A DNA stretch of 64,000 nt from Bdellovibrionales bacterium Ga0074137 (lineage in GTDB: Bacteria > Bdellovibrionota > Bdellovibrionia > Bdellovibrionales > JAMPXM01): the NCBI GenBank assembly GCA_001464715.1, contig LNDT01000018.1:19625-83624 (forward strand). The letters run 5' to 3'. Position 1 is the stretch's first letter, and the number at the start of each line of letters is the position of its first letter. Positions 7,793-62,967 of the stretch are shown here, in pieces. A model generated the notes under the pieces. It was not told where the DNA came from, searched no databases, and saw only the letters and a program-made list of their open reading frames with translations. Position numbers and translations under genes: made by a program.

Positions 7793-8278
7793 ATGAAATA
7801 TATTTTCCTTTCCTTTCTCTTTTTCTGGATTTCCGTAAAAGCCGATGCGCTCACTCTTCGACCCGGCGATCAAATCACTATGACTCAAACCGGCACCGAA
7901 GCTTCAAACTGGGAAATAAAAAGTCGTCTCGTGGGAAAGGCCAACGGCGAACATTTCGATCTTATATTGGGCGATGTCGGGCCGGATGGTCAGAATGACT
8001 TGGCCTATGCCACGCAAGTGACGGACACGACTTTGATCTCGAGTTACCTAGCGGCGGGTCAAACCGTGACACTCAGTGAGCCAGTGACGACTGTTGTGCT
8101 TTCGAACACCGCGAAGAGTCTCCGTGCAAAACTCAAGACAGACGCGAAGGCGGCAGCCATCTATGCCGAAAAACTCGAAGCACAATACTATGGTTCGAAG
8201 AGTTTGTTGGGCGACTGCTACCGCAATAAACGTAAACTAGATGAAAAGAGCCCACCGGCGTCCGAGATTAGGCGATAG
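7793..8278 (+). CDS. secreted hypothetical protein
   Basis: GGAGG lies 9 nt upstream of the ATG. N-terminal signal-like MKYIFLSFLFFWISVKA. Confidence 0.6.
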   Translation: MKYIFLSFLFFWISVKADALTLRPGDQITMTQTGTEASNWEIKSRLVGKANGEHFDLILGDVGPDGQNDLAYATQVTDTTLISSYLAAGQTVTLSEPVTTVVLSNTAKSLRAKLKTDAKAAAIYAEKLEAQYYGSKSLLGDCYRNKRKLDEKSPPASEIRR

Positions 8279-8330: not shown

Positions 8331-8374
8331 TCAGTTCGAGTTCGAACTCAAATCTCAGTTCGAACCCGAACTAG
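8331..8374. repeat. GTTCGAAC-containing low-complexity array (2 palindromes)
   Basis: tCAGTTCGAGTTCGAACtcaaatctcaGTTCGAACccgaactag. GTTCGAAC occurs at 8340 and 8358. The same 16-mer is found at 21401, 23202 and 24413. Confidence 0.7.
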
Positions 8375-8427
8375 AAATTTACCCCGGAATCTGACAATAA
8401 GAAGAAACTGAACAATCAGTATTGAGG

Positions 8428-8561
8428 CCGCGGGATTTTACCTTTTTCCGCGACCTCCGAATCGGGAAGGTCGCGTATGCCGCGACCCGAGGCCAGGAAG
8501 GCCGAGCCGATGCGGCAGAGGGTACGACGCCCGTGTCGCGGAAAAAGGTAAAATCCCGCGG
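8428..8561 (-). repeat. structured inverted-repeat element, copy A (possible ncRNA or MITE-like element)
   Basis: The arm at 8428-8454 (CCGCGGGATTTTACCTTTTTCCGCGAC) is the exact reverse complement of 8535-8561. The 80-nt core, once reverse-complemented, aligns along its whole length with the core of copy B at 21125-21203. Confidence 0.8.
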
Positions 8562-8587
8562 ACACAAAATCGTCGTTCAATTTATGA

Positions 8588-9211
8588 CTATTTTGCGCTC
8601 TCGCGGACAAAGCGAGTGAGATAATACCGAACGAGGTAATCAGTCTTGATCGCCTGTTCGCGGTAGGTCCAATTGAGATCGCCGAAGGCGCCCCAGCGAG
8701 CGATCAAGAGATCTTCTTCACCGACATGGCTTGATACGGAAACTCCGCCGGGAGCTGCCGAAGCGCCGGCAGGTTGGAATCCCGCGCCGACGTAATGGAA
8801 GCGCACAGAAACTGCGCCGGGCTCTTTCAAAGAGAAAATTAGCTTAAAGCCGTTTCGGAACAGCATGAAGTCGGCGTGAGTGTTGGCGATGCCATAAATT
8901 TTCACTCGGCCAAGAGACGAACCTTTGAGTTGATTGAAGGCCGAAGCCGCATCGACAAAAGCCGTTTTGAGTTCGTTCATGAATGCGACCGATTCACCAA
9001 CAAGAATTTGAGCAGGATCGAAGGCCGGACCGAATTCGATGACTCCGGACTCTTCCATGCGCTGCTCGGCGCGAACCAGATCTTTGATCCAACCAAGACG
9101 GTCTGAGCGTAGGCCCTGCGAATTCGTGTTTGTTCCCGGTCGACTGCCTAAGATTTCCATTCCGTCCATGGAAGAACCCCCCTGAAAAATAGAGCTAATC
9201 GCTCCTCTCAT
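8588..9211 (-). CDS. hypothetical protein
   Basis: 207-aa ORF downstream of ssb on the same strand. No recognisable motif. The opposite-strand ORF is shorter and Arg-rich. Confidence 0.6.
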   Translation of the reverse strand: MRGAISSIFQGGSSMDGMEILGSRPGTNTNSQGLRSDRLGWIKDLVRAEQRMEESGVIEFGPAFDPAQILVGESVAFMNELKTAFVDAASAFNQLKGSSLGRVKIYGIANTHADFMLFRNGFKLIFSLKEPGAVSVRFHYVGAGFQPAGASAAPGGVSVSSHVGEEDLLIARWGAFGDLNWTYREQAIKTDYLVRYYLTRFVRESAK

Positions 9212-9821: not shown

Positions 9822-12800
9822 TCAGAGAGCGATCGAGATGATGGGGTAGGCGCCGTTCGGATTGGCTCGTTTGTCGAAGCCCCAGTGGTAGCCCAGAATG
9901 AACTGAACCGGCAGATGATAAAACAGCGTCGTGTCGATGCGAGCTTCAGCGCCAATGGTGCCAAACATATTGCCGATGCCGCTCGAGCGATAGTTATCGA
10001 TCTCAAAGTCGAAGAACGCACCTTCGATCGTCACGAGATCGGCAAAGACGGCTCCATGCCAGCGTTTGATGAACGCAGGGTTGGTTCCGAATCCGTGATA
10101 CGAACTTGAAAGGGGAAATCGATGTTCGAGCGAGCCACGCACAAATTTTCGCGCAAGAAAAGTTCCCGAAGGATAGCCGCGCATGACGAAGCTTGTGCTT
10201 GAAGCGCCAAGTGCTACGGTTTCCACGGGAAGACTGACGCTGGAAGGACCCAAAAGCAGGCGATCGAGCCCGGGAAGCCAGCTAGCTGTCAGCGACGCAT
10301 TGAAGACGTGGCGCTCGGGAAGCCATCCGAAAAGTTTCGCTCCGAAAACATCAGGCGTCGATACTCGCGACAAATATGACGAGATCGAAACGTCCGTTTT
10401 GTCGTAAACAAGATTCCCCAGCTCCGGAAGAAAGCGTGCGTGCGTGAGTCGCCAGTGCCCGCCTTTTTCAGGAGAGATCTCAAAACCTTTTTGTTCAAGA
10501 TCTTGCCACAAAACTCCAACGCGCGGGCCACCGCGGATGCGGACGTCAGAACCGCCAGCGGTGAGGGGAATTTCCGTTCGCTGGTGACTGAGCCCAAGCT
10601 CACCTCGCCACGAATTGGACAGCGCGGGAATAAAAAACGTTCCCGAAAGATCGCCCGTCGACGAGCGTCGATCAAAACCCGACGATGAAAGTCGCTGCCA
10701 GAAATCATCGACCATCAACGTCGTGCGAACCCGTGTCGTCGCGTTTGAATAGGCCGCAAAAAAGTTCGGCTTACCGATACGCGTATCGGTGGAAATAGAC
10801 GTCGCCAAAAGATGGCGTCCCATCGGATCTCCTGACGACGTTGATGCCGACAAAAACGCACCGCCAGGAACAAAGGCCGCATAAGGCATCCAGTAGCGCG
10901 GAAGCAGGTAAGGCCAAACTGAAAAGTCCTCGCCCGCCAATGCTGATTCGGGAATCGCCGCATCGGGAACAATGTGCGGCGCTTCGGTCCGTTCAATCAA
11001 AAGCGGAATTTTGATCAGCCGATTTTCTCGCACCGTTTGGTTTTGTCCACGATCGCTGGCGGTCAGGCGACGAAGCCGCGAGCCATTGCCATCGAGTCGC
11101 GAGTAAATCAAAGTTTCGTTCGAGAGATCATAGTCGGCGCTCCATGCGCGCGTGACCGAGTTGGTAAGAGGACGAATATTTTCAAGAGCAAAGCTTCGCG
11201 AAGTTTCTTGACTCACGTCGCGCAAAAGATCGGCGATGTAAATATTCGAAACACCGGTTCTGTTCGAAGTGAAAAGCAAATTGCGGCGCCCGGTTCTCGC
11301 ATCCAAAACAAGGCGCGGAAACGTGACAGATCCGCCGCTGTTGACAAGGCGAGGCGCTGCGGCACTGGGGGCTATGACCGACGTGCCGGTTCGCAAATCG
11401 AGCACTTTCAAAACTTCTTTCGCATCGGGGCTTCGCTCGACAAAGACCAGTGTTCGGGGCCCCGTGAACGTCGGCCACGAGACACGGTGATCCTTTTCAG
11501 GCGCGTACAAAACGGCCGGAGGTCCAAGCTCCATTTTGCCCGAAGCGTTCGGTGCAAGATCGGCGATTGCAATGTGAGTTTGTCCGGGGCGCAGCTGTAC
11601 GAACGCGACTTTTTTTCCGTCAAGACTGACATCGGGTTCGCGCGCACGAAGTCCTTTTGAGAGGCGAATTTTCTTTTTGTCGCTCCGCCGGTAAAGCCAA
11701 AGATCGCTTCGCTCTTCATAGCGGCCAAAGCTGTCGATGCCGTCGTGGATCAATTCCTGGCCGCCGGGGAGCCAGGCAATCCGGTGCGCGCTTGTCGGTT
11801 CAGCGGCGCGTTTTGCGTTGGCGAAATCAAAACCACCGTCGAGCGAATCCGCGGCTCTCTCGACGATCATCACAACAGAATCGTGATTGTGCTCTCGTGT
11901 CAGGAACGCCAAAGCTTGTTTTTCAAAAGGAAGTGCATGCGTGATCACGGGCGCTCGCGAGAAAAATCCTGCCTCACCAAGTTTTGCTCCCTCAAGGCAG
12001 CCGTTCTCACAAAGCAGTTCAATCTGCCCAACCGCTCGCTGTTCGATCTCTGTGTAAGTGGACTCAAGATAGCTTTGCCAATTTTTCCCGGTCCGCTCTT
12101 CAAGAGGAGTGTCGATGAAAAATGGCATACGACGAGCGTAGTGATCGTTCAGATCACCAACGATCGAGGGGCTCTCTTTAATTAATTTTTGCCAGATGAA
12201 ACCACCAAGAAGATAAGGCCTCGCACCGCCAGGCCAATCAGGAATCGACGTTTCGCCAACGCGTGCGATATCTTCCTGACGCAAAATATTGTCTTGCACC
12301 ATCGCGCGTGGGATCGCTGTAAAATCTGGAGATCTGAGGCGCCCGCCCGAGGGTGAAAATCGCGTTTCAATTTCAACCGCCAATCCCTCGAGGTACCAGC
12401 GCGGAAGCAAGAGATTCGGTCGCACGATGGTTCCGAAAATATTGCGAAGTGTGTGGAAAATTCCGTGGGCTGGTTGAAAGTTCAGCACGTGAGCGTACTC
12501 GTGAGTCATCAGCTCGAGTCCCCAGGGCCCCGTGTCGCCAATGGTCTCTCCCGGCGAAGGTGAAGCGGGGTACAGGTGAATCTGTGGATAGGGAAGTCCG
12601 GTCGCCATCCCATTGGCTTCATCGCCACTATCATCGATCAGAACGACAGTTTTATCCGGCCAAGTTCGAAAAATAGGCACAAGCGTAGTCCATGCAGTCT
12701 CCGCGTGGCGAGCGAAGTCCTTTGCCAGCTGGTGATGCCTCGAGTCATACACGATCTCGAAATGTTCAGTTTCGATTTTTTTCCATTCGACGCTGGGATC

Positions 12801-12986
12801 TGCGCCGAAACTCTTCTGAGCTGCTGCAAAAAACAAAATCACAAAAAGAAACAGCGGGAGAATCGCTGTGAGCGGGCGTTTCCCGTGGCGTGCGATCTGT
12901 TTAAGATTTTTTTTCGCTAGGATATGCATCATTCTGTGCGGCCCTCTTAGAATATTAAGGCGTGGATGACTGCGGCACTCGCCCAT
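9822..12986 (-). CDS. large envelope protein: HExxH metallopeptidase-like N-domain, beta-propeller-like repeats, C-terminal beta-rich region
   Basis: Signal/TM LTAILPLFLFVILFFAAAQ. Zinc motif MTHEYAHVLN. Central repeats resembling TolB/PD40 propeller blades (DGKKVAFV, GRRNLLFTSNRTG). The C-terminal 300 aa have an alternating beta-strand pattern. The start could be Met19 (12932). Confidence 0.8.
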   Translation of the reverse strand: MGECRSHPRLNILRGPHRMMHILAKKNLKQIARHGKRPLTAILPLFLFVILFFAAAQKSFGADPSVEWKKIETEHFEIVYDSRHHQLAKDFARHAETAWTTLVPIFRTWPDKTVVLIDDSGDEANGMATGLPYPQIHLYPASPSPGETIGDTGPWGLELMTHEYAHVLNFQPAHGIFHTLRNIFGTIVRPNLLLPRWYLEGLAVEIETRFSPSGGRLRSPDFTAIPRAMVQDNILRQEDIARVGETSIPDWPGGARPYLLGGFIWQKLIKESPSIVGDLNDHYARRMPFFIDTPLEERTGKNWQSYLESTYTEIEQRAVGQIELLCENGCLEGAKLGEAGFFSRAPVITHALPFEKQALAFLTREHNHDSVVMIVERAADSLDGGFDFANAKRAAEPTSAHRIAWLPGGQELIHDGIDSFGRYEERSDLWLYRRSDKKKIRLSKGLRAREPDVSLDGKKVAFVQLRPGQTHIAIADLAPNASGKMELGPPAVLYAPEKDHRVSWPTFTGPRTLVFVERSPDAKEVLKVLDLRTGTSVIAPSAAAPRLVNSGGSVTFPRLVLDARTGRRNLLFTSNRTGVSNIYIADLLRDVSQETSRSFALENIRPLTNSVTRAWSADYDLSNETLIYSRLDGNGSRLRRLTASDRGQNQTVRENRLIKIPLLIERTEAPHIVPDAAIPESALAGEDFSVWPYLLPRYWMPYAAFVPGGAFLSASTSSGDPMGRHLLATSISTDTRIGKPNFFAAYSNATTRVRTTLMVDDFWQRLSSSGFDRRSSTGDLSGTFFIPALSNSWRGELGLSHQRTEIPLTAGGSDVRIRGGPRVGVLWQDLEQKGFEISPEKGGHWRLTHARFLPELGNLVYDKTDVSISSYLSRVSTPDVFGAKLFGWLPERHVFNASLTASWLPGLDRLLLGPSSVSLPVETVALGASSTSFVMRGYPSGTFLARKFVRGSLEHRFPLSSSYHGFGTNPAFIKRWHGAVFADLVTIEGAFFDFEIDNYRSSGIGNMFGTIGAEARIDTTLFYHLPVQFILGYHWGFDKRANPNGAYPIISIAL

Positions 12987-20474: not shown

Positions 20475-21074
20475 ATGAACACAGATCACACCAACAACCC
20501 ATCGCCACACACTGCCAATGTGACTCGCGAGCTCGATCCTGGGCTCTTCGGAGGGTCCACGTCGACACCGGCGCAGGGACACGGTTCGACGCCCACCCAT
20601 GGACTTCATCCCGGTATCGCTCCGCCAACGACGCAGCCAGGACGTGCGATTCCTTATCCACCGATTGATATGCGAGTGCTTGAAGCGCAGGTTCTGCAAA
20701 TCAAAGCTGTGCTTTCGCAGTTCGATCGTCGTCTTGATCAGATGGCGGCCCAAATCAACGAAACGAACCGCGACAATCAAGGTCGTCTCGACCGCTACGG
20801 GCAACAGCTTTTGCGACTCGAAGATGGAATTCAGCGACTGACGTCCGACACCAGCAATCGTCTCGCCTCGCTTGCAGGCCGTGTGAACGAACGAAAAGTC
20901 AGCGACAGTAAGCTTCAAGATTTGATCGATCGCCATAATCTTTTGGTCCGCAATTTCGAAAACCGGCTCTCGTCGTTGCAAAAACTTGCGGGCGATCAAG
21001 AGCAGGCACTTTTGAGCGCGTTCGCGGCTCTTGAAGATGCTCGCGCGGATTTGGCGCGCCTAAAAAGAATGTAA
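20475..21074 (+). CDS. hypothetical coiled-coil protein with Pro/Thr/His-rich N-terminus
   Basis: 199 aa. The C-terminal 140 aa are heptad-like (LEAQVLQIKAVLSQFDRRLDQM...). The antisense ORF 20418-20999 looks like Arg-rich noise. Confidence 0.55.
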   Translation: MNTDHTNNPSPHTANVTRELDPGLFGGSTSTPAQGHGSTPTHGLHPGIAPPTTQPGRAIPYPPIDMRVLEAQVLQIKAVLSQFDRRLDQMAAQINETNRDNQGRLDRYGQQLLRLEDGIQRLTSDTSNRLASLAGRVNERKVSDSKLQDLIDRHNLLVRNFENRLSSLQKLAGDQEQALLSAFAALEDARADLARLKRM

Positions 21075-21093: not shown

Positions 21094-21234
21094 GGGATCG
21101 CTTCGGCCTCTCTCTTTCCGCGACACGGGCCTCCGTGCCCTCGCTGCGACGGCTCGGCCTTCCTGGCCTCGGCCCGCGTTTACGCGGACTTCCCATCGCA
21201 GAGGTCGCGGAAAGAGAGAGGCCGAAGCGATCCC
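21094..21234 (+). repeat. structured inverted-repeat element, copy B (possible ncRNA or MITE-like element)
   Basis: The arm at 21094-21124 (GGGATCGCTTCGGCCTCTCTCTTTCCGCGAC) is the exact reverse complement of 21204-21234. The 79-nt core is homologous to copy A and shares an identical 23-nt block, CGGCTCGGCCTTCCTGGCCTCGG. Confidence 0.8.
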
Positions 21235-21285: not shown

Positions 21286-21420
21286 CGGGTTGTGGTTCGA
21301 ACTGCGGGTTCTGTTCGAGTTTAGATTCGGTTTGAGTTCGCACTCGAGTCTGAGTTCGAGTTCGAACTGCGGGTTCGGAGTTTGGTTCGAGCTTGTGTTT
21401 CAGTTCGAGTTCGAACTGCT
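21286..21420. repeat. GTTCGAAC / GTTCGAG low-complexity array (3 palindromes)
   Basis: GTTCGAAC occurs at 21295, 21360 and 21409. The internal duplication GGTTCGAACTGCGGGTTC appears twice. AGTTCGAGTTCGAAC occurs at 21353 and 21402. Confidence 0.7.
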
Positions 21421-21522: not shown

Positions 21523-22461
21523 TTAAATTGGAAGAAGGCGATAGCGCCACTGGTTTAGCTCTGAGGCGATGTTGGCTTTTGCGTTGGCTTCATACTTTTC
21601 CTGCATTTGCGAAATCCTAAAAATTCGGCCTCTCATTAATTTTTTTAGTAGGCGCTTCCTGCCAGCGTAAAAAACGACCGACGGAATCATTTTGTACTCC
21701 TCTCTCACGTCGTTCGCGTAGGTCTCATACAAGAAACGGCAGGCACCCAGGACTGAAAGATCAATATCGAGAAACAAATTAGTATCCACATCGCCCCTAA
21801 GATCATCTCTGGCATCGCCCCTCACATCACTTTCGTGCTTGGACGCCAGGATCATCAATTCCACTGCCGGAAGCGATATATCTGACTTAAAAGTGCCAAG
21901 ATCTTGGTGTAGTCTTCTGGCGCTGTTTTCTTCATTTTTCTTCGAAGCGGGGACGTAGACCAAATCGTGGTACCAGATCGCAAGTTCAATTTTTTCCTTG
22001 TCGACATAGCCGTCGGTTGAAGTGTCCAGCTCATACAAACATTGGTTGATGTGGGTGAGCGAATGGTAGGCCCTTGCGCCATCGTCGTAGGTTTCGATAA
22101 TTGACTTCGACAGTGACTCGGACTGCTTAGTCTCCATCGAAAAGTGCCGGCGAAAAAAACCATCAAGACGTGCGAGAAGCTCGGTCTTTCGAGAAGTCGT
22201 AACGATAAGTTCGGGGTGCTTCGTCCAAATGAGAAAGAAAGCATTGTCTGTGCTGAACTGCGAAAGCGTAAGACTTTCTAGATCGATACTTGGCAGCGAC
22301 TTCACCCAGTCCATGGAAACCTGGGAAGCCGGAAGTCTCCAGCTTCTTTTGACTCCGTAAATTCGATAGAACCTATCTTCAACAAAGGGCCCGCGGTTTG
22401 TGGTTTCCACAAACACAAAGTCGATCTCGCTGGCGGTCAGTTTCTCTATTTCATTGTTCAT
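21523..22461 (-). CDS. HD-superfamily phosphohydrolase-like protein (COG4339-like C-domain) with an unknown N-terminal domain
   Basis: ARAYHSLTHINQCL ... LAIWYHDLVYVP ... NEENSA matches the H...HD pattern of the small HD family. The first 120 aa or so are unassigned. Confidence 0.6.
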   Translation of the reverse strand: MNNEIEKLTASEIDFVFVETTNRGPFVEDRFYRIYGVKRSWRLPASQVSMDWVKSLPSIDLESLTLSQFSTDNAFFLIWTKHPELIVTTSRKTELLARLDGFFRRHFSMETKQSESLSKSIIETYDDGARAYHSLTHINQCLYELDTSTDGYVDKEKIELAIWYHDLVYVPASKKNEENSARRLHQDLGTFKSDISLPAVELMILASKHESDVRGDARDDLRGDVDTNLFLDIDLSVLGACRFLYETYANDVREEYKMIPSVVFYAGRKRLLKKLMRGRIFRISQMQEKYEANAKANIASELNQWRYRLLPI

Positions 22462-22567
22462 TCAGAGAGTCCTCCTTATCAAGTGCTCCGCAGACGTTCC
22501 TCATCAAGTTAGGTTCTTCAGGCACAAAGCTATTGTCGGCGCCATAGATTGGTCCTACAACCAATCT

Positions 22568-23119
22568 ATGGGGCGTAAAAGCGAAAGAGAAAATCGAAGG
22601 CGAGAGATTATCGCGGCCTTTGGTCGGGTTCTGGCCGATCACGGTTTTGCCGGCGCCACAATGACGGCCGTGGCAGAAAATGCCGGCTTGTCGCCGGGGC
22701 TACTCCACCATCACTTTAAAGACAAAAATGAAATGTTAGAGGAGCTGTTGACCAGTTTGATTGGTGGATTCAAAAAGCGATTCTCTGACTTTTGCAAAGA
22801 TCAGCCGGCCGAGCAGAAATTAGAATGTTACATCGATGCCGCTTTAAAACTTGATCAGCATTCCGATTCAATTTCAGCGAAGTGCTGGGTGGGGCTTCTG
22901 GCTGAAGCGCTACGTAATCCGGTGCTTTTTAATCGAGTGAAACGGCACTTAGAAAATGAAGTAAAGATAGTTTCCGAAATCTCTGGAAATAAATTAAGCG
23001 AGCAGAAGAGCAGCGCAGTTATCTCATTCATATTTGGTGCTCTCGTTTTTGGAGCCTTCGCACCCCGCAAAGCCGCAGGATTTGCGGCACCTGCTGCAAA
23101 ACGCCTAGCGAAGAGCTAA
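22568..23119 (+). CDS. TetR-family transcriptional regulator
   Basis: RRREIIAAFGRVLADHGFAGATMTAVAENAGLSPGLLHHHFKDKNEML is a typical TetR HTH. I chose the ATG at 22568 rather than the tracked 22400 start. Confidence 0.85.
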   Translation: MGRKSERENRRREIIAAFGRVLADHGFAGATMTAVAENAGLSPGLLHHHFKDKNEMLEELLTSLIGGFKKRFSDFCKDQPAEQKLECYIDAALKLDQHSDSISAKCWVGLLAEALRNPVLFNRVKRHLENEVKIVSEISGNKLSEQKSSAVISFIFGALVFGAFAPRKAAGFAAPAAKRLAKS

Positions 23120-23180
23120 TGTTGCGGCTATTTGAAAATCGCGGTGAAAATTTGTATCGATTGGTTGATTGCCTGGTTGA

Positions 23181-23228
23181 TTCAAGTTCGAACCTGAAAT
23201 TCAGTTCGAGTTCGAACCTGAACTTGAA
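23181..23228. repeat. GTTCGAAC array (2 palindromes)
   Basis: ttcaaGTTCGAACctgaaattCAGTTCGAGTTCGAACctgaacttgaac. Located in the 470-nt gap after tetR. Confidence 0.65.
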
Positions 23229-23591
23229 CTGGCGTCAGTTGCAGCCGCTTGCTTTTTGTTACCTGCTTCGATTTCTGAGATTCGGCCTTGCAGGATTCTT
23301 CCAGGGCTCAGTGGTTATTATCTTCGAGTTTTGACGCATCATCGTCGGTTCGATAAATTTCCAAAAATAAAAATTGACGGTGTTTTCAGCCGCCATTTGA
23401 AAATATTTTTCCGCGTATCAACATGGCTCTCGAGCCAACTTCAAAAGCGCATATCGGCTCATGGTTCAGCGGCTGGTGGTGAATTCACGAAGCGGCTCGA
23501 GTTAAAAATTTTGGCCCTCTGGTGAGACTTCTAACGCAAAAAATCTCATTTAAAAAACCGATGGTAGGGTTTTTTCGGAGGAGAAACCAAT

Positions 23592-24719
23592 ATGAATCTC
23601 AAAATCCTATCGGACGAAACTTTGACTGAAAAACTTCGCGATCTTTCAAAGCGTGATCTGGCGCTCACGGCAGAGATCGTCTCGCACATTCATGAGTTTA
23701 TGGTGCGACGATTGTACCTCGATCACGGGTGCACCAGTATTTTCGGATATCTCACAGATCACCTTGGCTATCCGCGTGCCACCGCCCAAAACCGAATCGA
23801 TGCGGCTCGGTTGTTGGACGCTGTTCCGGAAATTAAAGAAGAGCTCGCCAATGGAAAGATTAGTCTTGGGCAAATCACTTTGATCTCGATGGGTGTTCGG
23901 CAGGCCGAGAAAGAAAATCCTGGGATGAAAGTGTCCGTCGATCAAAAGCGACATTTGGTCGAGAAGATCGCAAATCGCGGGAACGCTGAGACGGGCAGTG
24001 GATGCCTTTATGGCGAGCATGCCGAAAGTGGTGAAAAAACTGCGAAAAGCGGTAACGGTGGGTCGGTTAGGTCCGAACATGCATCTGCTCAAATCATAGC
24101 GCAGGAACTCGATATCAAAATCATTCCCGTTGAAAGAGTTCGTGTGCATCAAGACGGTTCGGTCACTATCGAAGTCCACCTTTCCAAAGAAGAATTCGAA
24201 AACCTAAAACGGGTCCGCGATCTAAACACGCACAAAAACCACAACGCAAAACTCGGCGAAACTGTCGCTGAGGCGGCGAAGTTCTTTTTAGAAAAAAAGG
24301 ATCCACGAAAATTAAAAACCAAAATTGACCTGCAGCAGGCGAAAACCGATTCGATTTCAGAAACTGGTTCGGATTCGAACTTGGAGGTAGGCTCGGGACC
24401 GAACCAAAATTTCAGTTCGAGTTCGAACTCGAAAGATGATTTGCCAAAAACCAGTACGGTCGCCTTGAGGCCGAGCGCCCAACTTCCAAAACGCATCCAG
24501 CGTAACTATATTAGTGTGCACGTTGTTCGCGCCCTTCATCAGCGAGACAAATCATGTCGGTGGCGGGACTCAACGGGCCACTTTTGCGGATCGACGTACC
24601 AGCTGCAAATCGATCACATCAGAGGACTTGCCGATGGTGGCGCCGACGCGATCGAAAATCTTGAGCTAAAATGCTCAATACACAACCGACGGAAGTTCGA
24701 ACTCGAACAACGTCAGTGA
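23592..24719 (+). CDS. HNH endonuclease (DUF222-like N-domain + C-terminal HNH)
   Basis: C-terminal LQIDHIRGLADGGADAIENLELKCSIHNRRK is an H-N-H motif. The N-terminus (LLDAVPEIKEELANGKISLGQ) resembles the DUF222/13E12-type family. GGAGGAG RBS. Confidence 0.85.
   Translation: MNLKILSDETLTEKLRDLSKRDLALTAEIVSHIHEFMVRRLYLDHGCTSIFGYLTDHLGYPRATAQNRIDAARLLDAVPEIKEELANGKISLGQITLISMGVRQAEKENPGMKVSVDQKRHLVEKIANRGNAETGSGCLYGEHAESGEKTAKSGNGGSVRSEHASAQIIAQELDIKIIPVERVRVHQDGSVTIEVHLSKEEFENLKRVRDLNTHKNHNAKLGETVAEAAKFFLEKKDPRKLKTKIDLQQAKTDSISETGSDSNLEVGSGPNQNFSSSSNSKDDLPKTSTVALRPSAQLPKRIQRNYISVHVVRALHQRDKSCRWRDSTGHFCGSTYQLQIDHIRGLADGGADAIENLELKCSIHNRRKFELEQRQ
24366..24432. repeat. GTTCGA-type repeat embedded in frame in the HNH gene linker
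   Basis: ggttcggATTCGAACttggaggtaggctcgggaccgaaccaaaatttCAGTTCGAGTTCGAACtcg, translated as GSDSNLEVGSGPNQNFSSSSNS. Confidence 0.6.
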
Positions 24720-36838: not shown

Positions 36839-37841
36839 GTGGCCTGACATTCGAACCCGAACTTGGGTTCGTCGGTTCGATCGTCGGGGGATTGGGCGAA
36901 ACAGGTTCTTCGGTAACAACGACAACTTCTGTGAGTGTCTGTTTTAATATTTGATTTTCAATCACTTGCTGGCTCAAACGTGCGGCGATATTTTCGAGAT
37001 GTTTAAACTCATCGCCAGCGCGAAGCTTGAGCGTCCGCGGTTTTCCTGCCGCCAAATCATCGAGGAATTTTTCAAAAGCATACAGCGGACCTGCGATGCG
37101 ACTCGATAGAACACGACCCACCAAAAAGAGGACTGCGGCAAATGCGACACTCACAATGGCAAACGTCATGACGAACGGAGCGAGGTAGTGATCGAGGAGC
37201 TTTTGGTTGTTTCCCACCAAATCGATGATTGTGACTCTCAAAAAAGTGTACGAGAAAACGCCGGCAATCAAAGCAAAACCAAGTCCAACACCTGTCAAGA
37301 TGAAGCAGTACCGAAGCTGAAAGCGGACATTGATCCACATTCTTTTTCGAGTGTTGTCGGCGGGCCACAATATTTCTGACTCTCGCACAAGAGCAATCGC
37401 GATCATCGCATAGCCAACCCACTGTAATGCATCAGCGAGGTTGAAGGCCGGTGTTGCATTTTGCGGGGATCCGATGAGTAAAAAGTCGATCACGTAGCCG
37501 TTGATGATCCGGTCCGTAACGTTCCCAAGAATTCCGCCCAACAAAACGCTCATTCCGGAGCGAAGCAAAAGTGACTTGATCGGAAGGAGGTACTGAATAA
37601 TGGCGAACGAAAATATGAGAAACGCGCCACCTGTCGAAAGCGTCACGATGCGAAGAACGGCGGGAAGGTCACTAAAAAGTCCAAGCATGGCGCCGTGGTT
37701 GTGATGAAGCACGAAGCCAAAAGGTCCAAAAAACTGAAGACCACGAATGCCCTCAGCAAAATTTTTCGTAACCTGGTCGATACCCCAAGTAAAAAACAAT
37801 GGGAATAGAACTATCAACCAATCCAATCGACGTAGCTGCAT
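36813..37841 (-). CDS. signal peptidase II (LspA) paralog fused to 2 TM helices and a HAMP-like domain
   Basis: LspA motifs IDQVTKNF, GNVTDRIINGYVIDFL and PAFNLADA, with both catalytic Asp present. Two further TM helices follow, then RIAGPLYAFEKFLDDLAAGK...GDEFKHLENIAARLSQQV, which fits a HAMP pattern. Confidence 0.75.
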   Translation of the reverse strand: MQLRRLDWLIVLFPLFFTWGIDQVTKNFAEGIRGLQFFGPFGFVLHHNHGAMLGLFSDLPAVLRIVTLSTGGAFLIFSFAIIQYLLPIKSLLLRSGMSVLLGGILGNVTDRIINGYVIDFLLIGSPQNATPAFNLADALQWVGYAMIAIALVRESEILWPADNTRKRMWINVRFQLRYCFILTGVGLGFALIAGVFSYTFLRVTIIDLVGNNQKLLDHYLAPFVMTFAIVSVAFAAVLFLVGRVLSSRIAGPLYAFEKFLDDLAAGKPRTLKLRAGDEFKHLENIAARLSQQVIENQILKQTLTEVVVVTEEPVSPNPPTIEPTNPSSGSNVRPLKRSTERS

Positions 37842-47332: not shown

Positions 47333-50300
47333 TTAGTAGCCCTCGCTCAAGTAGCTGGCATTCATTTCCGACGACGTGATTTTGTAATCCGACACAAAGT
47401 CTTTGAAAACTCCGGCTTTGTCTTTTGTGTTGTAGGTGCCGATCGTCGACGAACGATATTCGGCTGTATCCCCATTTTCATCGCGAGTGCGAAAGCCTGA
47501 TATTTTAATTTGGTAGAACAGATTGTCTTTCCCGATCCACGTAACAAGCTTTGCCAAATCAACGTTTCGCTCGAGGTGAGTGATCAATCTTGTGGCCCAC
47601 TTGACGCGCTCTTCTGGATTTGTGGGATACGACCTTCGCAAATCCAAAATGGTCCACATCCACGGAAGTAAGCAGTCATAGGTCACCGCATGGTAGGAGT
47701 CTTTTCGATCTGAACCGCGGTTCCCGTTTTGATTTTTACGGACGTAACATTCGTCGTCGAAACGTTTTTTTCCGTAAAGAGGAATCAGAACTTTTTCGAC
47801 GATCTCGGCATCGCGGCCCGAATACGCATCCCAGCCGACCATGCGTTCGAAAGCATTTCCTTTCGAACCACCTTTAACCAGGAGTTTAGATCGAAGCTTG
47901 TCCATTCCCTCTTGGTAAATGATTAGAGTCGAACGAATTTCGTAGAGCTGAAGTCGACGCATATCATTGAAAGTTTCTCGGTCGATCAGTGGAAGTCCCA
48001 GCTTGAGCCCTTTTACCTTTCGGTCGAGCTCATCAAAAGTTTTGAAGAGATCAGCCTTCGAAAGGTCCCAACCTGCCCAATAATTTTCAACCGTGGTCAC
48101 CGGCGGACTCTGCCGACTTTTCGTCACTTCGGCTTCAGTGCTCACTACGCTCCAACGAGAGTTTCCAAAGAAACTATCTTTGGGATTTGAGCCGCCGCCG
48201 CCCGCAAGAAGACCCGGCTTCCAAAAATCGGAATTCTGCACGAGCCCATCAAGAACGTCCGAAAGGAATGAGTAGTAGTTTTTCCCGCTTCTCTGAAGAA
48301 TTCGGTGACTGAACAAGGTTCGTTCGAATTTTTTCGGATCAAAATCTTGTGCTGGATCTTTGGGTGGTTGAACCTTTACCCGATGCCACTCTTCGATATT
48401 GGTCCATTGCCAGAAAAGAAATTTGCCTTCGCTGATCTCTGACTTGGTACGGTGATTCAGCTGATAGGGATGAAAGTTCTTTTCCAGAATCTCCGAGTTG
48501 TTCGAAGAAAGTATGCCGACCATCGCAAGCACAGTGTTTCGAAGCTTAACTTCGTCGGTTGGCTTTTCATCGAGGTGAAAGGCGCGCGTGCGGGCCTGGC
48601 CCCACTTGTGTTGGTAAGAGAGGCGCATAATATTCATCCAAAAATTCACGTCCAAAGCGACGCCGGCCATCTGCGACTGGATGTTTTGAAGGTATATTTT
48701 GATCAATCCATTTTCGCGAGTGAACGTCGTTCGCCGCAAAACAATTTGATTCGCCGAAGCACCGATGGAAATCGTGGCCGCGTAAGAAACTGGATCAATC
48801 CCGAGAAGGGTTGTCAGCGGAATGGTGAGCGTCGCATTTTGACCAAGAGCCAAAGTATCTGTGATCGTGAATGTTTCGTTCTCTTTGAGTTCATCTAAGA
48901 ATTTCGTGAGTCCGTCGTTTAAGACTTTGAGGCGATTTTCTGGTTTTGGATCAGCCGATGTTTCAAGGATGCCACCGAGGTTTTTCATGAACTTCGGAAC
49001 AAAGAGTTCGCTCCAGCTTTTTTTAGAAGCGGCTTCAAGACTTGGAACTGGTCTTGCGTGTACATAACTACGAATGACCGAGAGATTAGCTCCGAAGCCC
49101 GGAATGACTTTGGGATATCCGTCGACACCCAAGAAGTATCCGACTCGTGCGCCGGCCGAAACTTGATCCACAAGGCTCACACGGAAGTCGCTCGACTCGT
49201 TTCCATAGTAGGACCCTGTGACCAAAGATCGCGACGCGTTTAAGATCACGCCGCCGACAGGTCCGCCCCAAGTAGAAATGGGCTGCACATACGGTTTTGT
49301 TGGTCGAGTTTTGATGTAGTTAAAGAAATCAGTGCGAAGCGCTTCGCTTCTTTTCTGTAAGAGATTGTCCATCGGGAAAAATTCTAATTTTTCAGCCACC
49401 ATGGATGTCATTTGGCGAATGAGACCCGACGTCGCTTCGATCTTTACAAATCGAACGATGTCGTCGGTCTGAAGCGGCGATTCGGGATCGCCGTGGGTGA
49501 AGCGAAGGGCGTAGCCTTCATATCGCTCCTGTGTGACTTTTCCTTCGCGGACGGAACCGATAGTTAGCCCCAAGTTATACGGGAAGTCCGCCTCGGAACC
49601 TCCCGACTTTACTCCGGTAATGGCAACGAGCTTATTTCTACGGGCCAGGGTTTTTTGAAGAATGATCGCTTCGATATCGGGTGGATATTTTCCTTCCGCT
49701 ACGACTTCGCGAAAATCCTCGCGAGAAAGTTTGCCGATGCGTTCTGAAATCCAGCGAACGTCATCAAGAGTCGTTTCTTCAAAAGCCGTCGCGTACTTAT
49801 GAGTGAAGACCAGATTTTCGCTGAGAACCTGAGCCGGTTCCCACGAGAACATGTTCACACTCTCGGGGACATCCAACAGGGTTGTTGGAACCAGCAGTGC
49901 GCGTGTGGCGCGACGACCTTTGATTAAAACGTCGCTGACGACGCCGTAGTTAAAAGTTGTCGGGAAAATTATTGTCGCCGGCTCCAACATGACATCTTGA
50001 AGCTGGATTTCGTTGAGTTCGGCGTTGTCTTTTAGAACCCACCGAGTGTTGTCCGCCAATGTTCGAAGCGAGAGCTGCGTGACAAAATTCTTTCGATCCT
50101 CGGAATTTGAAAATCGGATCCGTGAATTTTTGTACCACTTCGGAGATTGAGCCGAATAGCCGAGCTTTCTCAAGAGGGCTGCGCGCATCAGGGCTTGGTG
50201 GGTATTGAGGCTTAAGACCAATCGGTAGACACGAGTTTGTCCGTCGGACCCCACGCTTTGCACTTGAACGCGGTACCAACCTTCCGGGTTAAGAGGCATG

Positions 50301-50662
50301 ATCGAAACGAAATCCAGCGGAGTGCCGTCGGTTGGAAATGCCGACGTCTCGGCGTCGCTCGCAGAAAGTTTTGTGTCGGACCAAATATCGTTCGGAGTCG
50401 GATTGAGGAGACTGAGATCTGTTCCGTCTTTTCGAAGATCGGCGGCACGATCTGCATCGAGTGGTTGGCCGTTGAGCGAGAGATCGACTGCAGGATCTTG
50501 TTTGTTGCCGAGTTCAACGGCGGTGGTCGGAATCGCTTTACTTTGTGCGACGGCGATTTGCGGTGCGACGGTTAGAAAAACCAAAGTGGCGAGAAGTGCT
50601 AAAGTGGGTGACGAAGTCGCGCGGTTTTCTGAGAACTTTGGTGCCTGAAAAATCCCGTTCAC
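47333..50662 (-). CDS. giant secreted or outer-membrane hypothetical protein (1109 aa)
   Basis: GTG start preceded by GGAGGG. Signal LALLATLVFLTVAPQIAVAQ. No recognised domain. Its stop lies 1 nt before the S8 protease ATG. Confidence 0.7.
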   Translation of the reverse strand: MNGIFQAPKFSENRATSSPTLALLATLVFLTVAPQIAVAQSKAIPTTAVELGNKQDPAVDLSLNGQPLDADRAADLRKDGTDLSLLNPTPNDIWSDTKLSASDAETSAFPTDGTPLDFVSIMPLNPEGWYRVQVQSVGSDGQTRVYRLVLSLNTHQALMRAALLRKLGYSAQSPKWYKNSRIRFSNSEDRKNFVTQLSLRTLADNTRWVLKDNAELNEIQLQDVMLEPATIIFPTTFNYGVVSDVLIKGRRATRALLVPTTLLDVPESVNMFSWEPAQVLSENLVFTHKYATAFEETTLDDVRWISERIGKLSREDFREVVAEGKYPPDIEAIILQKTLARRNKLVAITGVKSGGSEADFPYNLGLTIGSVREGKVTQERYEGYALRFTHGDPESPLQTDDIVRFVKIEATSGLIRQMTSMVAEKLEFFPMDNLLQKRSEALRTDFFNYIKTRPTKPYVQPISTWGGPVGGVILNASRSLVTGSYYGNESSDFRVSLVDQVSAGARVGYFLGVDGYPKVIPGFGANLSVIRSYVHARPVPSLEAASKKSWSELFVPKFMKNLGGILETSADPKPENRLKVLNDGLTKFLDELKENETFTITDTLALGQNATLTIPLTTLLGIDPVSYAATISIGASANQIVLRRTTFTRENGLIKIYLQNIQSQMAGVALDVNFWMNIMRLSYQHKWGQARTRAFHLDEKPTDEVKLRNTVLAMVGILSSNNSEILEKNFHPYQLNHRTKSEISEGKFLFWQWTNIEEWHRVKVQPPKDPAQDFDPKKFERTLFSHRILQRSGKNYYSFLSDVLDGLVQNSDFWKPGLLAGGGGSNPKDSFFGNSRWSVVSTEAEVTKSRQSPPVTTVENYWAGWDLSKADLFKTFDELDRKVKGLKLGLPLIDRETFNDMRRLQLYEIRSTLIIYQEGMDKLRSKLLVKGGSKGNAFERMVGWDAYSGRDAEIVEKVLIPLYGKKRFDDECYVRKNQNGNRGSDRKDSYHAVTYDCLLPWMWTILDLRRSYPTNPEERVKWATRLITHLERNVDLAKLVTWIGKDNLFYQIKISGFRTRDENGDTAEYRSSTIGTYNTKDKAGVFKDFVSDYKITSSEMNASYLSEGY

Positions 50663-50904: not shown

Positions 50905-51657
50905 TTAGAGAAGCTGACCAGCTTCTTTTCCGTACCAAGTCTTGATGATCGTTTTCACGTTCTCAGGAGTTGTCGACCATGTTGTCGCGAGCTCTTGAAC
51001 CATACCGTTGACGGGAGCTTTATTACCCTTCATAGATTCGCCCAAAGCAGCCTTGATTTCATTCAAGTCTTGTCCGTACAGACGCTGACTGAAATCAGCA
51101 AAATCGGCCTCTGTGCGTGCGCGAGACTTTCCGATTTGGTTGTAATCATGAGTCACAGTCGCGATCGACATAGCGACTTGTGGTTCAAGGTCGTACTTAT
51201 TAGCTAGGTGATCAGCCGCAGTTCGAACAATGTTCTGCTCAAGCTGAGCCACATCGCCTGCGAGATCTCGGCCTGTGCCGCTGTCGTCGTTCAAAGCATC
51301 GCCGTAGTAGTCATATAGGATTCCGTTGGGCGAAAGCCATGCGAAGCCTTCGTAGCTCGCAGAGAATCCGTAAGAATCGACGTAATTATACTTTGCGTAC
51401 TCAAGAGCGTAGAACGAGTTGAAGTAGGGATCTTCGATGTCACCGATCTTGAAGCCGTTTGCGTAGAAGTTGCAACCAGGCGATGGGCCACCAGTTCCGC
51501 AACGGAAACCGTAAACGTCGTACCAAGCCTGATAGCCCGGATCGAAAATGATGCCGCCGCCGCCACTGCCGCTTCCGCCGCCGCCACCGCCACACGCTGA
51601 CACTAGAACTGCTGCTGCAAGTGCCGCTACGACACTACCTATCGACTTTTTAAACAT
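50905..51657 (-). CDS. lipoprotein with a poly-Gly linker, unknown function
   Basis: Lipobox LVSACGGGGGGSGSGGGG. Tyr/Gly/Asp-rich N-terminal half. Confidence 0.65.
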   Translation of the reverse strand: MFKKSIGSVVAALAAAVLVSACGGGGGGSGSGGGGIIFDPGYQAWYDVYGFRCGTGGPSPGCNFYANGFKIGDIEDPYFNSFYALEYAKYNYVDSYGFSASYEGFAWLSPNGILYDYYGDALNDDSGTGRDLAGDVAQLEQNIVRTAADHLANKYDLEPQVAMSIATVTHDYNQIGKSRARTEADFADFSQRLYGQDLNEIKAALGESMKGNKAPVNGMVQELATTWSTTPENVKTIIKTWYGKEAGQLL

Positions 51658-52705: not shown

Positions 52706-54108
52706 TTTTTCACCGGCGCGGCCTTTGCCGCAGGTTTCGTTGTCGTTTTAGGAGCCGATTTTGCCGCCGGCTTCGCTGCGGGCTTTGCGGCGGGCTTTGC
52801 GGCGGGCTTTGCGGCGGGCTTTGCGGCGGCTTTCGCTGGGGTTCCAGAAGCTCCTGCTTTCGGAGCCGCCTTTTTCGCTGGCGCCGACCTCTTCAGTGTC
52901 GCCGATTTTACGCCGCTCCGATACTCCCTTGGTAAAGGATTCGCACCGCTTATCGTGGTGCGTTTCCCGTCGGGACTTCGGTCCTCACAATTGTAGTTCG
53001 GACTTCCGATCGGGCCGACCCAGGGGTTTTCATCTTTCTTACCGGGGGCACGAATGCAGTTTTGAATTGAGAGAACATGTGCGGCCGTTTCTTCATTGGA
53101 TTTTGCCAGGGCCTCGACCCACTTTTTGCGGTTGGGCGGTTCGATGGGGCCGAGAATTTTCTGTGCAGCTCCATAACCCATATTATAAGCGCCGGCCGCC
53201 GCAAGAGTCAGGTAGTAGTTCGGATCGTTGTCGTCGTTTTGATCAATGCGCAAACTTTGATCGAGTGTCTTTTTGAAATGATAGATAATCATTCGCATGT
53301 ACATGGCCGTTGCGCCGATGGCGATTTTCGGATCCTTGATCGTCGCGACATTCACTACACGCGGAACGCCGCCTCGATGTAATTTTGCTTCCTCGAGGTT
53401 TTCAAAGTAGGACTCCCATCCCATTCGATGCTCGCGGTCCTCAAGCTTCGTTCTGGCATAACGAAGACTTTTTCTTGCCTCGCCCGCTGTCCGCTTTTTT
53501 GCAGCCATTTGCTCTTCGATGGACATCTTTGAGATTTCTAAAAGATCAGCAGTGAGTTTCGGATTTCCCGGTTTTAAAATATTTGAGATGTGGGTCATTG
53601 TTCCTCGAAGATGTTGACCAAGTCCGATGGCGCCGGCCGACGACTTTGCGTTAATATCGAAACGGCTTTCTCGGAAAATGAGACACGCTAATAATGTCTC
53701 CGGAATATCGAACGAGGCGGCGGCTGTTTTAATTAGAGGGAGATACGATTTTTCAACAACGTTCCAACGCCCCGGTTCGACCAAGTAGCACTCAAGGTAC
53801 TGCCTGAGATCACCCTCGGATTTGAACTCGTCTTTTCCGCCGCTGAACGCAGCAGGGATAAACCTTTGCATTGTCTGCGTGGTTTTTGGAACAGTCGATT
53901 TTGTCACCGCTTCGGGCGGATCGTCAGCGCAAATTTTTTCTTTCACGCCGTTGAGTGCATCGATGATCCCGAAGAAGCGTTTACCTTCGTCGGCCCGCGC
54001 ATTTTCAGGGGTGAAGACTAAACCGCCAAACATGGTTACGGTCAGCACCCCAGAAAAGGCCACGGACCGGAGCATCGACAAATTTCGTCGTACGAACGTG
54101 CAAGACAT
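52702..54108 (-). CDS. lytic transglycosylase (SLT domain) with a C-terminal (AAKP)n tail
   Basis: LIFRESRFDINAKSSAGAIGLGQ contains the catalytic Glu and a GLGQ motif, followed by AGAYNMG. C-terminal AAKPAAKPAAKPAAKPAAKPAAKS. Confidence 0.8.
   Translation of the reverse strand: MSCTFVRRNLSMLRSVAFSGVLTVTMFGGLVFTPENARADEGKRFFGIIDALNGVKEKICADDPPEAVTKSTVPKTTQTMQRFIPAAFSGGKDEFKSEGDLRQYLECYLVEPGRWNVVEKSYLPLIKTAAASFDIPETLLACLIFRESRFDINAKSSAGAIGLGQHLRGTMTHISNILKPGNPKLTADLLEISKMSIEEQMAAKKRTAGEARKSLRYARTKLEDREHRMGWESYFENLEEAKLHRGGVPRVVNVATIKDPKIAIGATAMYMRMIIYHFKKTLDQSLRIDQNDDNDPNYYLTLAAAGAYNMGYGAAQKILGPIEPPNRKKWVEALAKSNEETAAHVLSIQNCIRAPGKKDENPWVGPIGSPNYNCEDRSPDGKRTTISGANPLPREYRSGVKSATLKRSAPAKKAAPKAGASGTPAKAAAKPAAKPAAKPAAKPAAKPAAKSAPKTTTKPAAKAAPVKK
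52781..52828. repeat. 4 perfect tandem copies of a 12-bp unit (GGCTTTGCGGCG) inside the SLT gene
   Basis: Read directly from the sequence. Degenerate copies flank the run. It encodes the AAKP repeats on the minus strand. Confidence 0.85.
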
Positions 54109-58448: not shown

Positions 58449-59135
58449 TCAAGTTAAGAGGGGCTTCAGACTTTTATACCCGATCGCGACCAGAGCGTTG
58501 ATAGCCTCAGCGTCGCTTGAAAGATTCAGTTTCTCTCGGACTTCGCTAATGATAGCGGCCGTCGTCGGAAGATTTGCCTGTGGGTTCACCTGTAGACTCG
58601 CCTGGGGATTCGCCGACGGATTCGTCCAGGCATTCGCGCTTGCGCCGGTGTTAAGGCCCATCGTCGAAACCTTTGATTGAGTTTTCACTTCGCCGTGAGC
58701 CGCCGACTGTGACAAAGCGCTGGCCATCGAAGCTGACATTGTGTGACCGGAACCACTTCCGGAACTGATCGCCGAACCATGACCCACCGGGCGATCGAAC
58801 TGACGCATTGCCTCATTGATCTGACGGAGATCCGAGAGAAAGTTTTGGCTACTGACGGGAGCTTCGGTTTCCATTCGGGGCGATTCCGGAACGCTTGGTT
58901 CCGGGCGAGCCATTTCGGGGCGGCCGCTCGATCGATAATAAAGCGTCATCAATCGGTCGGGATCCGAAGCCTGTTTGCGAATATGTTCGGGTTGATTAAC
59001 GAGCCAGTTGAACGCCGCTTGAAGATCGCCACGACCATAAGTGGCTGACGAAATGCCAGAAGAGACGCCAGAAGAAACGCCAGAAGACATGCCAGAAGAT
59101 GAGTTTGGGTGCGGCGGAAAACCTGAGGTCGACAT
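58449..59135 (-). CDS. hypothetical Ser/Gly-rich protein
   Basis: 228-aa ORF downstream of the sigma-54 activator. The N-terminal SSGMSSGVSSGVSSGISS is encoded by four 12-nt tandem units at 59053-59100. No recognised domain. Confidence 0.55.
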   Translation of the reverse strand: MSTSGFPPHPNSSSGMSSGVSSGVSSGISSATYGRGDLQAAFNWLVNQPEHIRKQASDPDRLMTLYYRSSGRPEMARPEPSVPESPRMETEAPVSSQNFLSDLRQINEAMRQFDRPVGHGSAISSGSGSGHTMSASMASALSQSAAHGEVKTQSKVSTMGLNTGASANAWTNPSANPQASLQVNPQANLPTTAAIISEVREKLNLSSDAEAINALVAIGYKSLKPLLT

Positions 59136-62748: not shown

Positions 62749-62967
62749 CTAAAGATCGATTCCCGAGACTGGAATACAGCCTCCGCCGGGCCGAGTACCA
62801 GTGCCTGACGCGTGCGACGGCGGCTGAATCTTCGAGTTCTCCATTTGCACAGCGGTCGAATCCGACGCACCAGCAGTGGTGGAGCTTGAATTCTGTCCAG
62901 AAATAGTACCGACGTTCGAACTCGCATTCGACGACGTGTGCTTATTGAGGACTTTAATGAATTTCAC
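62749..62967 (-). CDS. candidate small ORF (72 aa, Ser/Thr/Gly/Asn-rich, single Cys near the C-terminus); speculative peptide substrate
   Basis: The GTG at 62967 is preceded by GGAG-N6 and lies 10 nt before the radical-SAM stop. It ends in ...TRPGGGCIPVSGIDL. It fills the 226-nt gap before the kinase gene. It also contains a GTTCGAAC repeat motif, so it may be non-coding filler. Confidence 0.25.
   Translation of the reverse strand: MKFIKVLNKHTSSNASSNVGTISGQNSSSTTAGASDSTAVQMENSKIQPPSHASGTGTRPGGGCIPVSGIDL

Follow-up and report, generated by a model that had tools for sequence, protein, structure and literature searches.

A 14-bp inverted repeat associated with DUF222-HNH cassettes: a candidate recognition site for a family of repetitive nuclease genes

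In one source (PMC10589994, where Gordon et al., 1999 is cited), the DUF222-HNH or REP13E12 family is listed as a repetitive element. By membership, this is the closest known family to a gene unit described here from a window of 64 kb, by which we mean the whole stretch of DNA that was analyzed. Both the REP13E12 elements of mycobacteria and the window unit are genes of ~1.1-1.4 kb with a C-terminal HNH domain and a DUF222 (in the window unit, DUF222-like) N-terminal region, and in both cases several diverged copies, here on different contigs of one metagenome, have unrelated surroundings and are seen as repetitive or selfish. In contrast to REP13E12, the DUF222 match of the window protein lies below the Pfam cut-off and the associated sites overlap the coding sequence; further, the host here is not an actinobacterium, the contigs having a GC content of ~51% and coming from a drinking-water filter metagenome. 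We know of no cognate short palindrome described for the REP13E12 family, and the searchable literature on DUF222/REP13E12 and on GTTCGAAC, the palindrome that recurs in the window, yielded no report of a mechanism or a cis-acting site.

In its way of working, the closest known system would, by analogy, be the partnership of REP sequences with RAYTs. In the REPIN-RAYT systems, as in the HNH unit, inverted palindromes belonging to a single gene lie on either side of it (here with the central dinucleotide GT on the left and AC on the right). The same repeats are also dispersed outside genes, in many cases where convergent genes meet and as doublets whose inverted arrangement gives a hairpin (cluster A, below), and the repeat variant follows the protein clade. 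The differences lie in the protein, which is here a DUF222-HNH protein rather than an HUH/Y1 (IS200/IS605-like) transposase; in the gene, which is multi-copy and relocating whereas RAYTs are usually single-copy, and which also has sites within it; and in the solo clusters, which here look rare, with two or three in the total of ~250 kb sampled as metagenome contigs rather than as a complete genome. Other mobile systems share particular features with these units. Free-standing HNH homing endonucleases (phage mob, I-HmuI-type) are likewise discrete cassettes in different neighborhoods, presumably tied to a specific site; however, the target in classic homing is a single site, long and asymmetric, that lies within a conserved host gene and is destroyed by the insertion, while the sites here are short, symmetric and stay intact. 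As in insertion sequences with terminal inverted repeats, the 14-bp inverted repeats of the main clade of units bracket a promoter and an ORF, but here transposases of the DDE, HUH, serine and tyrosine types are all absent, we saw no duplication of a target site, and two units of a second clade (L127 and L211; related loci on other contigs are denoted by L and a number) have boundaries away from the repeats. Finally, the crossover sites of serine invertases and resolvases (hix, gix, res site I) also consist of inverted half-sites around a central dinucleotide, with a non-palindromic center (here GT or AC) that confers polarity and with left and right sites inverted; yet the half-sites here measure only 6 bp, and the units neither contain a serine recombinase nor have one close by.

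An earlier note on this DNA, made by eye, had claimed that GTTCGAAC is over-represented and clustered in the window, and exact search bears this out. There are 11 exact copies (8340, 8358, 21295, 21360, 21409, 23186, 23210, 24421, 24695, 51221 and 62914), as against about 2.5 expected (2.4-2.7 under Markov models of order 1-3; mean 2.43 and maximum 7 in dinucleotide shuffles), which makes it the top 8-mer of the window by z-score. The ten positions given in that note are all correct, with 51221 having been overlooked; its 15-mer AGTTCGAGTTCGAAC has exactly the five copies claimed, at the claimed positions and with a C before four of them, and the related ATTCGAACCCGAAC is indeed present at 36849. 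Nine of the 11 copies fall inside five clusters (8334-8371, 21289-21416, 23180-23223, 24367-24434 and 24695-24708). Masking these clusters and the HNH unit leaves two copies, which equals the background expectation, and the palindrome is thus a local feature rather than a genome-wide bias. The two are an isolated copy at 51221..51228 that lacks a second half-site, and another at 62914..62921 within a 14-mer with two mismatches (neither assigned a strand), both of which are background occurrences. The k-mer excess of the window, which seemed genome-wide, hence stems from one gene unit and two small arrays that look like relics.

Comparison of all copies, including those in related loci, defines the repeat unit as a 14-bp inverted repeat, GTTCGA-NN-TCGAAC, in which two 6-bp half-sites enclose a free dinucleotide. 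The 8-bp palindrome that had earlier been taken for the core is therefore not the real unit: it arises within the 14-mer only if NN is GT or AC. Perfect copies of the 14-mer number six in the window as against 0.02-0.06 expected, and those with at most one mismatch number nine as against 0.6-1.25 (Markov order 1-5 in both cases).

Three of the five clusters belong to the HNH unit, where they lie upstream of the gene, in a Ser/Asn linker and at the 3' end. The gene (23592..24719, plus strand), which forms the protein-coding core of the repeated unit, encodes a DUF222-like/HNH endonuclease of 375 aa. Its C-terminus matches the Pfam HNH domain (PF01844) with 27 bits (cut-off 21.4), and the HNH motifs (D-H...N...H-N and a Cys) are intact in the translation. 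The match to DUF222 (PF02720) reaches 20.4 bits, under the cut-off of 24.4 (E 3.6e-4), and covers profile positions 5-100 of 306 only; all nine aligned homologs match both domains, with a best E-value of 3.4e-6 for DUF222. Pfam searches with the window protein and the nine homologs gave HNH and DUF222 only and no recognized transposase class. A sequence search of the PDB returned nothing useful, an exact look-up of the window protein found no identical record, and its predicted structure (pLDDT 46) is too poor to reveal a DNA-binding surface.

The left sites of the unit (23180..23223, plus strand) comprise a perfect GTTCGA-GT-TCGAAC at 23204-23217 and decayed copies at 23180-23193 and 23210-23223. 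The left site lies 388 nt 5' of the ATG and marks the point at which DNA similarity to the paralogous units starts. It is followed by a promoter-like box, TTGACG-17-TAAATT (23331..23359, plus strand), which is preceded by an A/T-rich AAAATAAAA conserved in all units. Within the gene, the linker sites (24367..24434, plus strand) are translated as S-S-x-S-N and consist of GTTCGG-AT-TCGAAC (24367-24380), a perfect GTTCGA-GT-TCGAAC (24415-24428) and an overlapping GTTCGA-AC-TCGAAA (24421-24434). The right site, GTTCGA-AC-TCGAAC (24695..24708, plus strand), falls on the codons K-F-E-L-E, 11 nt 5' of the stop codon; with its spacer AC it is the exact reverse complement of the left site with its spacer GT, and both DNA and protein similarity to the paralogs stop there. 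The TetR gene at 22400-23119 was considered as a source of the site-binding protein and rejected, since no other unit has a TetR neighbor.

The 5' regions of the HNH units (window 23335-23590; L121, L123, L125, L206, L207 and L209) also share two conserved boxes. One is A/T-rich followed by TTGACG (AAAATAAAATTTGACG) and lies ~250 nt before the ATG; the other, CCGATGNTAGGGT, stands ~30 nt before the ribosome-binding site, and the leader between them is ~200 nt long. RNAalifold found no conserved RNA structure in this leader, and Rfam searches gave no match at gathering or relaxed thresholds.

Homologs of the window protein with 35-73% identity are encoded on other metagenome contigs, and together with the window we examined ten units, nine of them further distinct units from such contigs. 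By identity these fall into a main clade (at least 60%; seven units), a second clade (L127 and L211, ~48%) and L212 (35% at the amino-acid level). The positions of the sites are conserved across them. A linker site is present in ten of ten units and in all clades, in one to five copies with a 24-nt period. Six of the seven main-clade units have an upstream site at -313 to -388 relative to the ATG, and all seven have the 3' site on the KFELE codons (+968 to +1172). In the second clade, both units have an upstream site at about -100, in the leader, and one linker site each, with upstream and linker sites both reading GTTCGAATTCGAAC; L212 has an upstream site at -437 (one unit of one), reading GTTCGG-NN-CCGAAC, and related variants in its linker. 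At L121 9650-9693, the position of the left site of a paralogous HNH unit is occupied by a perfect (GTTCGA)7 followed by AC, the site having expanded there into a true hexanucleotide microsatellite.

The association of the site with these units is nearly exclusive: across the window and related loci, 21 perfect sites occur in 12.5 kb of HNH units as against four in 186 kb of other DNA, and none was present in ~38 kb of sequence from unrelated contigs of the metagenome. An isolated perfect GTTCGAGTTCGAAC at L211 499-512, which falls within a Gln_deamidase_2 gene at a distance of 4.5 kb from the HNH unit, could be due to chance given the total DNA searched or could be a stray site. Scanning a genome collection with the 16-mer CAGTTCGAGTTCGAAC, which occurs by chance in many phyla, returned 120 single matches in unrelated phyla, none of them with an HNH homolog or a site cluster, and relatives were not found in phage, plasmid and viral collections.

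The units have evidently changed location. Four copies with ~70% amino-acid identity lie on four contigs of the metagenome 3300002461 / LNFM01 in unrelated neighborhoods; their DNA similarity begins at the left site and ends just past the right site, beyond which the proteins have unrelated C-terminal tails of 3 to 38 residues, the tails differing because the ORF continues past the right repeat and ends in the flanking DNA. In the second clade, L127 and L211 are 89-90% identical over a sharply bounded 1.47 kb next to different neighbors. Here the boundaries (-420/-402 to stop+9) are free of sites, which implies that the sites are not universal termini of the cassette. The units have also been rearranged at their sites. 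The left site of the intact unit at L207 is preceded, at a distance of ~70 nt, by the 3' end of another, decayed copy (..RNWRKFDIER) with the site GTTCGA-TA-TCGAAC. L125 has, 340 nt downstream of its intact unit, a second copy with an internal deletion, which keeps the linker-site region (29 nt, 93% identical) and the 3'-site region (23 nt, 91% identical). In other loci, two solo clusters are recognizable as HNH copies in decay. Reading the flanks of six units by eye, we saw no direct repeat that would represent a target-site duplication, and an attempt to locate an empty site via the neighboring 331-aa gene recovered only two distant homologs, without synteny, and no such site.

Within the gene, the site is constrained at the level of DNA. 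Across seven units, of the 166 codon positions at which a degenerate amino acid never varies, only 21 (12.7%) use a single codon; in KFELE, the codons of K, F and L are each the same in seven of seven units. The only codon change, from GAA to GAG in L207, concerns the free spacer, and with it all three sites of that unit are identical. An exhaustive profile search recovered 553 representatives of the wider family (E<1e-30; clusters at 50% identity), in which the C-terminus reads K-[YF]-x-x-E with variable middle residues, while SSxSN is found in one of 135 full-length proteins. KFELE and SSxSN are hence traces that the DNA site has left, specifically in this clade, where the protein tolerates them, and the protein sequence is not the source of the DNA pattern. 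The 'Ser/Asn-rich filler' noted earlier where the motif falls in ORFs is the shadow of the DNA site at the protein level and not its cause.

The sites of a unit also vary together. The spacer is GC at three of three sites of L207 and AT at two of two sites in both L127 and L211, and the window unit and L209 both have the spacers GT, GT and AC; in L212 it is the half-sites that are altered, alike upstream and in the linker (GTTCGG..CCGAAC). Permuting the upstream sites among units gave p-values of 0.007-0.036 for this sharing of variants within units, values that are modest because of the small sample. The pattern would be expected if the sites co-evolve with a single binding protein, or else if gene conversion acts among the sites within each unit.

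The remaining two clusters are intergenic and stand apart from the HNH unit. Cluster A (8334..8371, plus strand) has a perfect GTTCGA-GT-TCGAAC (8334-8347) and, after a gap of 10 nt, GTTCGA-AC-CCGAAC with one mismatch (8358-8371). The two sites are inverted relative to each other, forming a hairpin of ~21 bp (DNA fold -13.3 kcal/mol, z -6.7), and lie between the convergent genes 7793-8278 (+) and 8588-9211 (-). Cluster B (21289..21416, plus strand), the region singled out in the earlier note, is a degenerate array of ~6 units spaced at 24-25 or 41 nt between the convergent genes 20475-21074 (+) and 21523-22461 (-). Two of its units are perfect GTTCGA-GT-TCGAAC (21354-21367 and 21403-21416), several others are decayed, and the array has no consistent reading frame. 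With the linker site of the resident HNH gene, cluster A has an identical stretch of 19 nt in common and cluster B one of 20 nt, and in nhmmer both match the element profile in its linker portion (E-values of 8.5e-5 and 1.2e-3, respectively). We take it that they would be relics or satellite arrays of the site family of the HNH unit. Since tblastn found no HNH coding remnants beside either, with matches at the motif level only, what points to such an origin is the motif itself and the 19-20 nt identity.

Both clusters adjoin another repeat, of ~140 nt, GC-rich and structured, with window copies at 8424-8562 (+) and 21100-21230 (-), others at L143:1118-1265, L156:1945-2090, L158:3292-3440, L160:5435-5585 (-) and L196:5295-5445 (-), and a partial one at L123:9375-9545 (-). 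A closing stem of ~30 bp surrounds three to four small hairpins, and CCGAGGCC.GGAAGGCCGAGCC forms the core. Folding energies of single copies are -87 and -109 kcal/mol (z -6.9 and -10.3), and compensatory changes are seen in 25 of 55 predicted pairs among seven copies. The copies lie 9-60 nt past the 3' ends of genes, mainly between convergent ones; the further copies are all on contigs of the same metagenome (LNFM01), three of the four contigs with the ~70% identical HNH copies share this repeat family, and there is no Rfam match. We rejected a tie between the GTTCGA clusters and this repeat: five further copies have no GTTCGA cluster within 400 nt, which sets it apart as a family of its own, perhaps of REP-like elements not described so far or of small RNAs. 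Elsewhere in the window, long minus-strand ORFs contain tandem repeats with a 12-nt period (52760-52833, TTTGCGGCGGGC x6.2; 59050-59099, GAAACGCCAGAA x4.2; 58571-58614, GATTCGCCTGTG x3.7) that presumably encode four-residue peptide repeats, and many large ORFs, such as 9822-12986 and 47333-50662, have no Pfam match.

We posit, with roughly even confidence, that the GTTCGA-NN-TCGAAC repeats are cognate binding or cleavage sites that promote the recombination or copying of a ~1.5-kb DUF222-HNH cassette. The near-exclusive association with the DUF222-HNH unit makes the unit's own protein the likeliest partner, and the clade-specific variants together with the DNA-level conservation inside the gene point to the same protein. 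The form of the site, with its 6-bp half-sites and free 2-bp center, is that of a site for a protein dimer, and some HNH restriction enzymes cut short palindromes as dimers. Under this proposal, a dimer of the cassette's own protein would bind the sites, which in main-clade cassettes lie upstream of the promoter, in the interdomain linker and on the last conserved codons, and would probably nick or cut them. Such action would drive recombination or copying of the cassette and so give rise to tandem copies, internally deleted copies and homogenized sites; autoregulation by the cassette protein might also be involved. Clusters A and B would derive from such cassettes, either as remnants or as copies. 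Several points weigh against the proposal: a protein that made double-strand cuts would find targets in its own gene, where the sites are intact; the cassette boundaries of L127 and L211 do not fall at the sites; and neither an empty site nor HNH coding remnants beside clusters A and B were found. Of the four candidates that the earlier note put forward without preference, the operator and the recombination or homing target fit the findings, but the note did not recognize the motif and the HNH gene as parts of one unit.

The main rival holds that the sites are purely autoregulatory operators, at which the DUF222 N-terminal domain or the whole protein represses its own gene without a role in mobility, clusters A and B being decayed leftovers. 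The 6-bp half-sites around a free 2-bp spacer have the classic form of a dimer operator, the upstream site of L127 and L211 sits in the leader right after a -10-like box, and two homologs give a weak winged-helix match. However, the upstream site of the main clade lies 60-130 nt before the -35 box and hence off the promoter, the 3'-end sites and solo intergenic arrays have no obvious regulatory role, and the tandem and deleted copies beside sites suggest recombination; we accordingly hold regulation as the sole role to be unlikely. A mini- or microsatellite that propagates itself independently of any protein, with a 6-nt or 24-nt repeat that expands by slippage, spreads by gene conversion and does no harm between genes or in a flexible linker, would explain the perfect (GTTCGA)7 of L121, the 24-nt period of the linker arrays with their one to five copies, and the 24-25 nt spacing in cluster B. 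Yet slippage does not account for a single upstream site at a conserved distance in six of seven units, nor for KFELE codons that carry the site in a different reading frame with synonymous positions frozen; the near-exclusive link to HNH units and the conservation of the half-sites while the central dinucleotide remains free also speak against such a satellite, which strikes us as rather improbable. The (GTTCGA)n microsatellite proposed in the earlier note applies at L121 alone, the array in the window being degenerate (58% matches, 11% indels).

Two further explanations fare worse. That the repeats act as hairpins in RNA or single-stranded DNA, either as terminators or stabilizers after convergent genes or through long-range pairing in the HNH mRNA, would suit the ~21-bp fold of cluster A, the location of both intergenic clusters between convergent genes and the perfect complementarity of the left and right sites. 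But a lone 14-mer forms a stem of only 5 bp, no T-tract follows the sites, the leader has no conserved structure by RNAalifold and the upstream site of the main clade precedes the promoter, which makes this highly unlikely. The idea, raised earlier, of a restriction-modification or methyltransferase target draws on the palindromic sequence and on TTCGAA being a known type II recognition sequence. With 84 copies, 73 of them outside the clusters, TTCGAA is the commonest palindromic hexamer of the window and is thus not avoided, its count agreeing with that predicted from dinucleotide composition (61-73). GTTCGAAC is at background outside the clusters, many copies of the repeat (those with spacer GC and the GTTCGG variants) lack TTCGAA at their center, and no DNA methyltransferase is found among the neighbors of any unit; the idea is thus left without support and is very improbable.

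Returning to sites recognized by the cassette's own protein, we may further consider, as a tentative and somewhat doubtful extension, that the units represent a REP/RAYT-like partnership built on another enzyme. Here a DUF222-HNH nuclease would maintain, homogenize and scatter its own 14-bp palindromes, including those in coding sequence, with the site and the protein clade co-evolving. The DUF222-HNH proteins form a large family that includes the REP13E12 repeats of M. tuberculosis and have been treated as selfish repeats. For this family the palindrome provides a concrete candidate for a recognition site, one that occupies conserved positions, is imposed on coding sequence and has variants that track the protein clade. 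If the REP/RAYT-like reading is true, it would offer the first cis-acting handle on the movement of the widespread DUF222-HNH (REP13E12-type) repeats.
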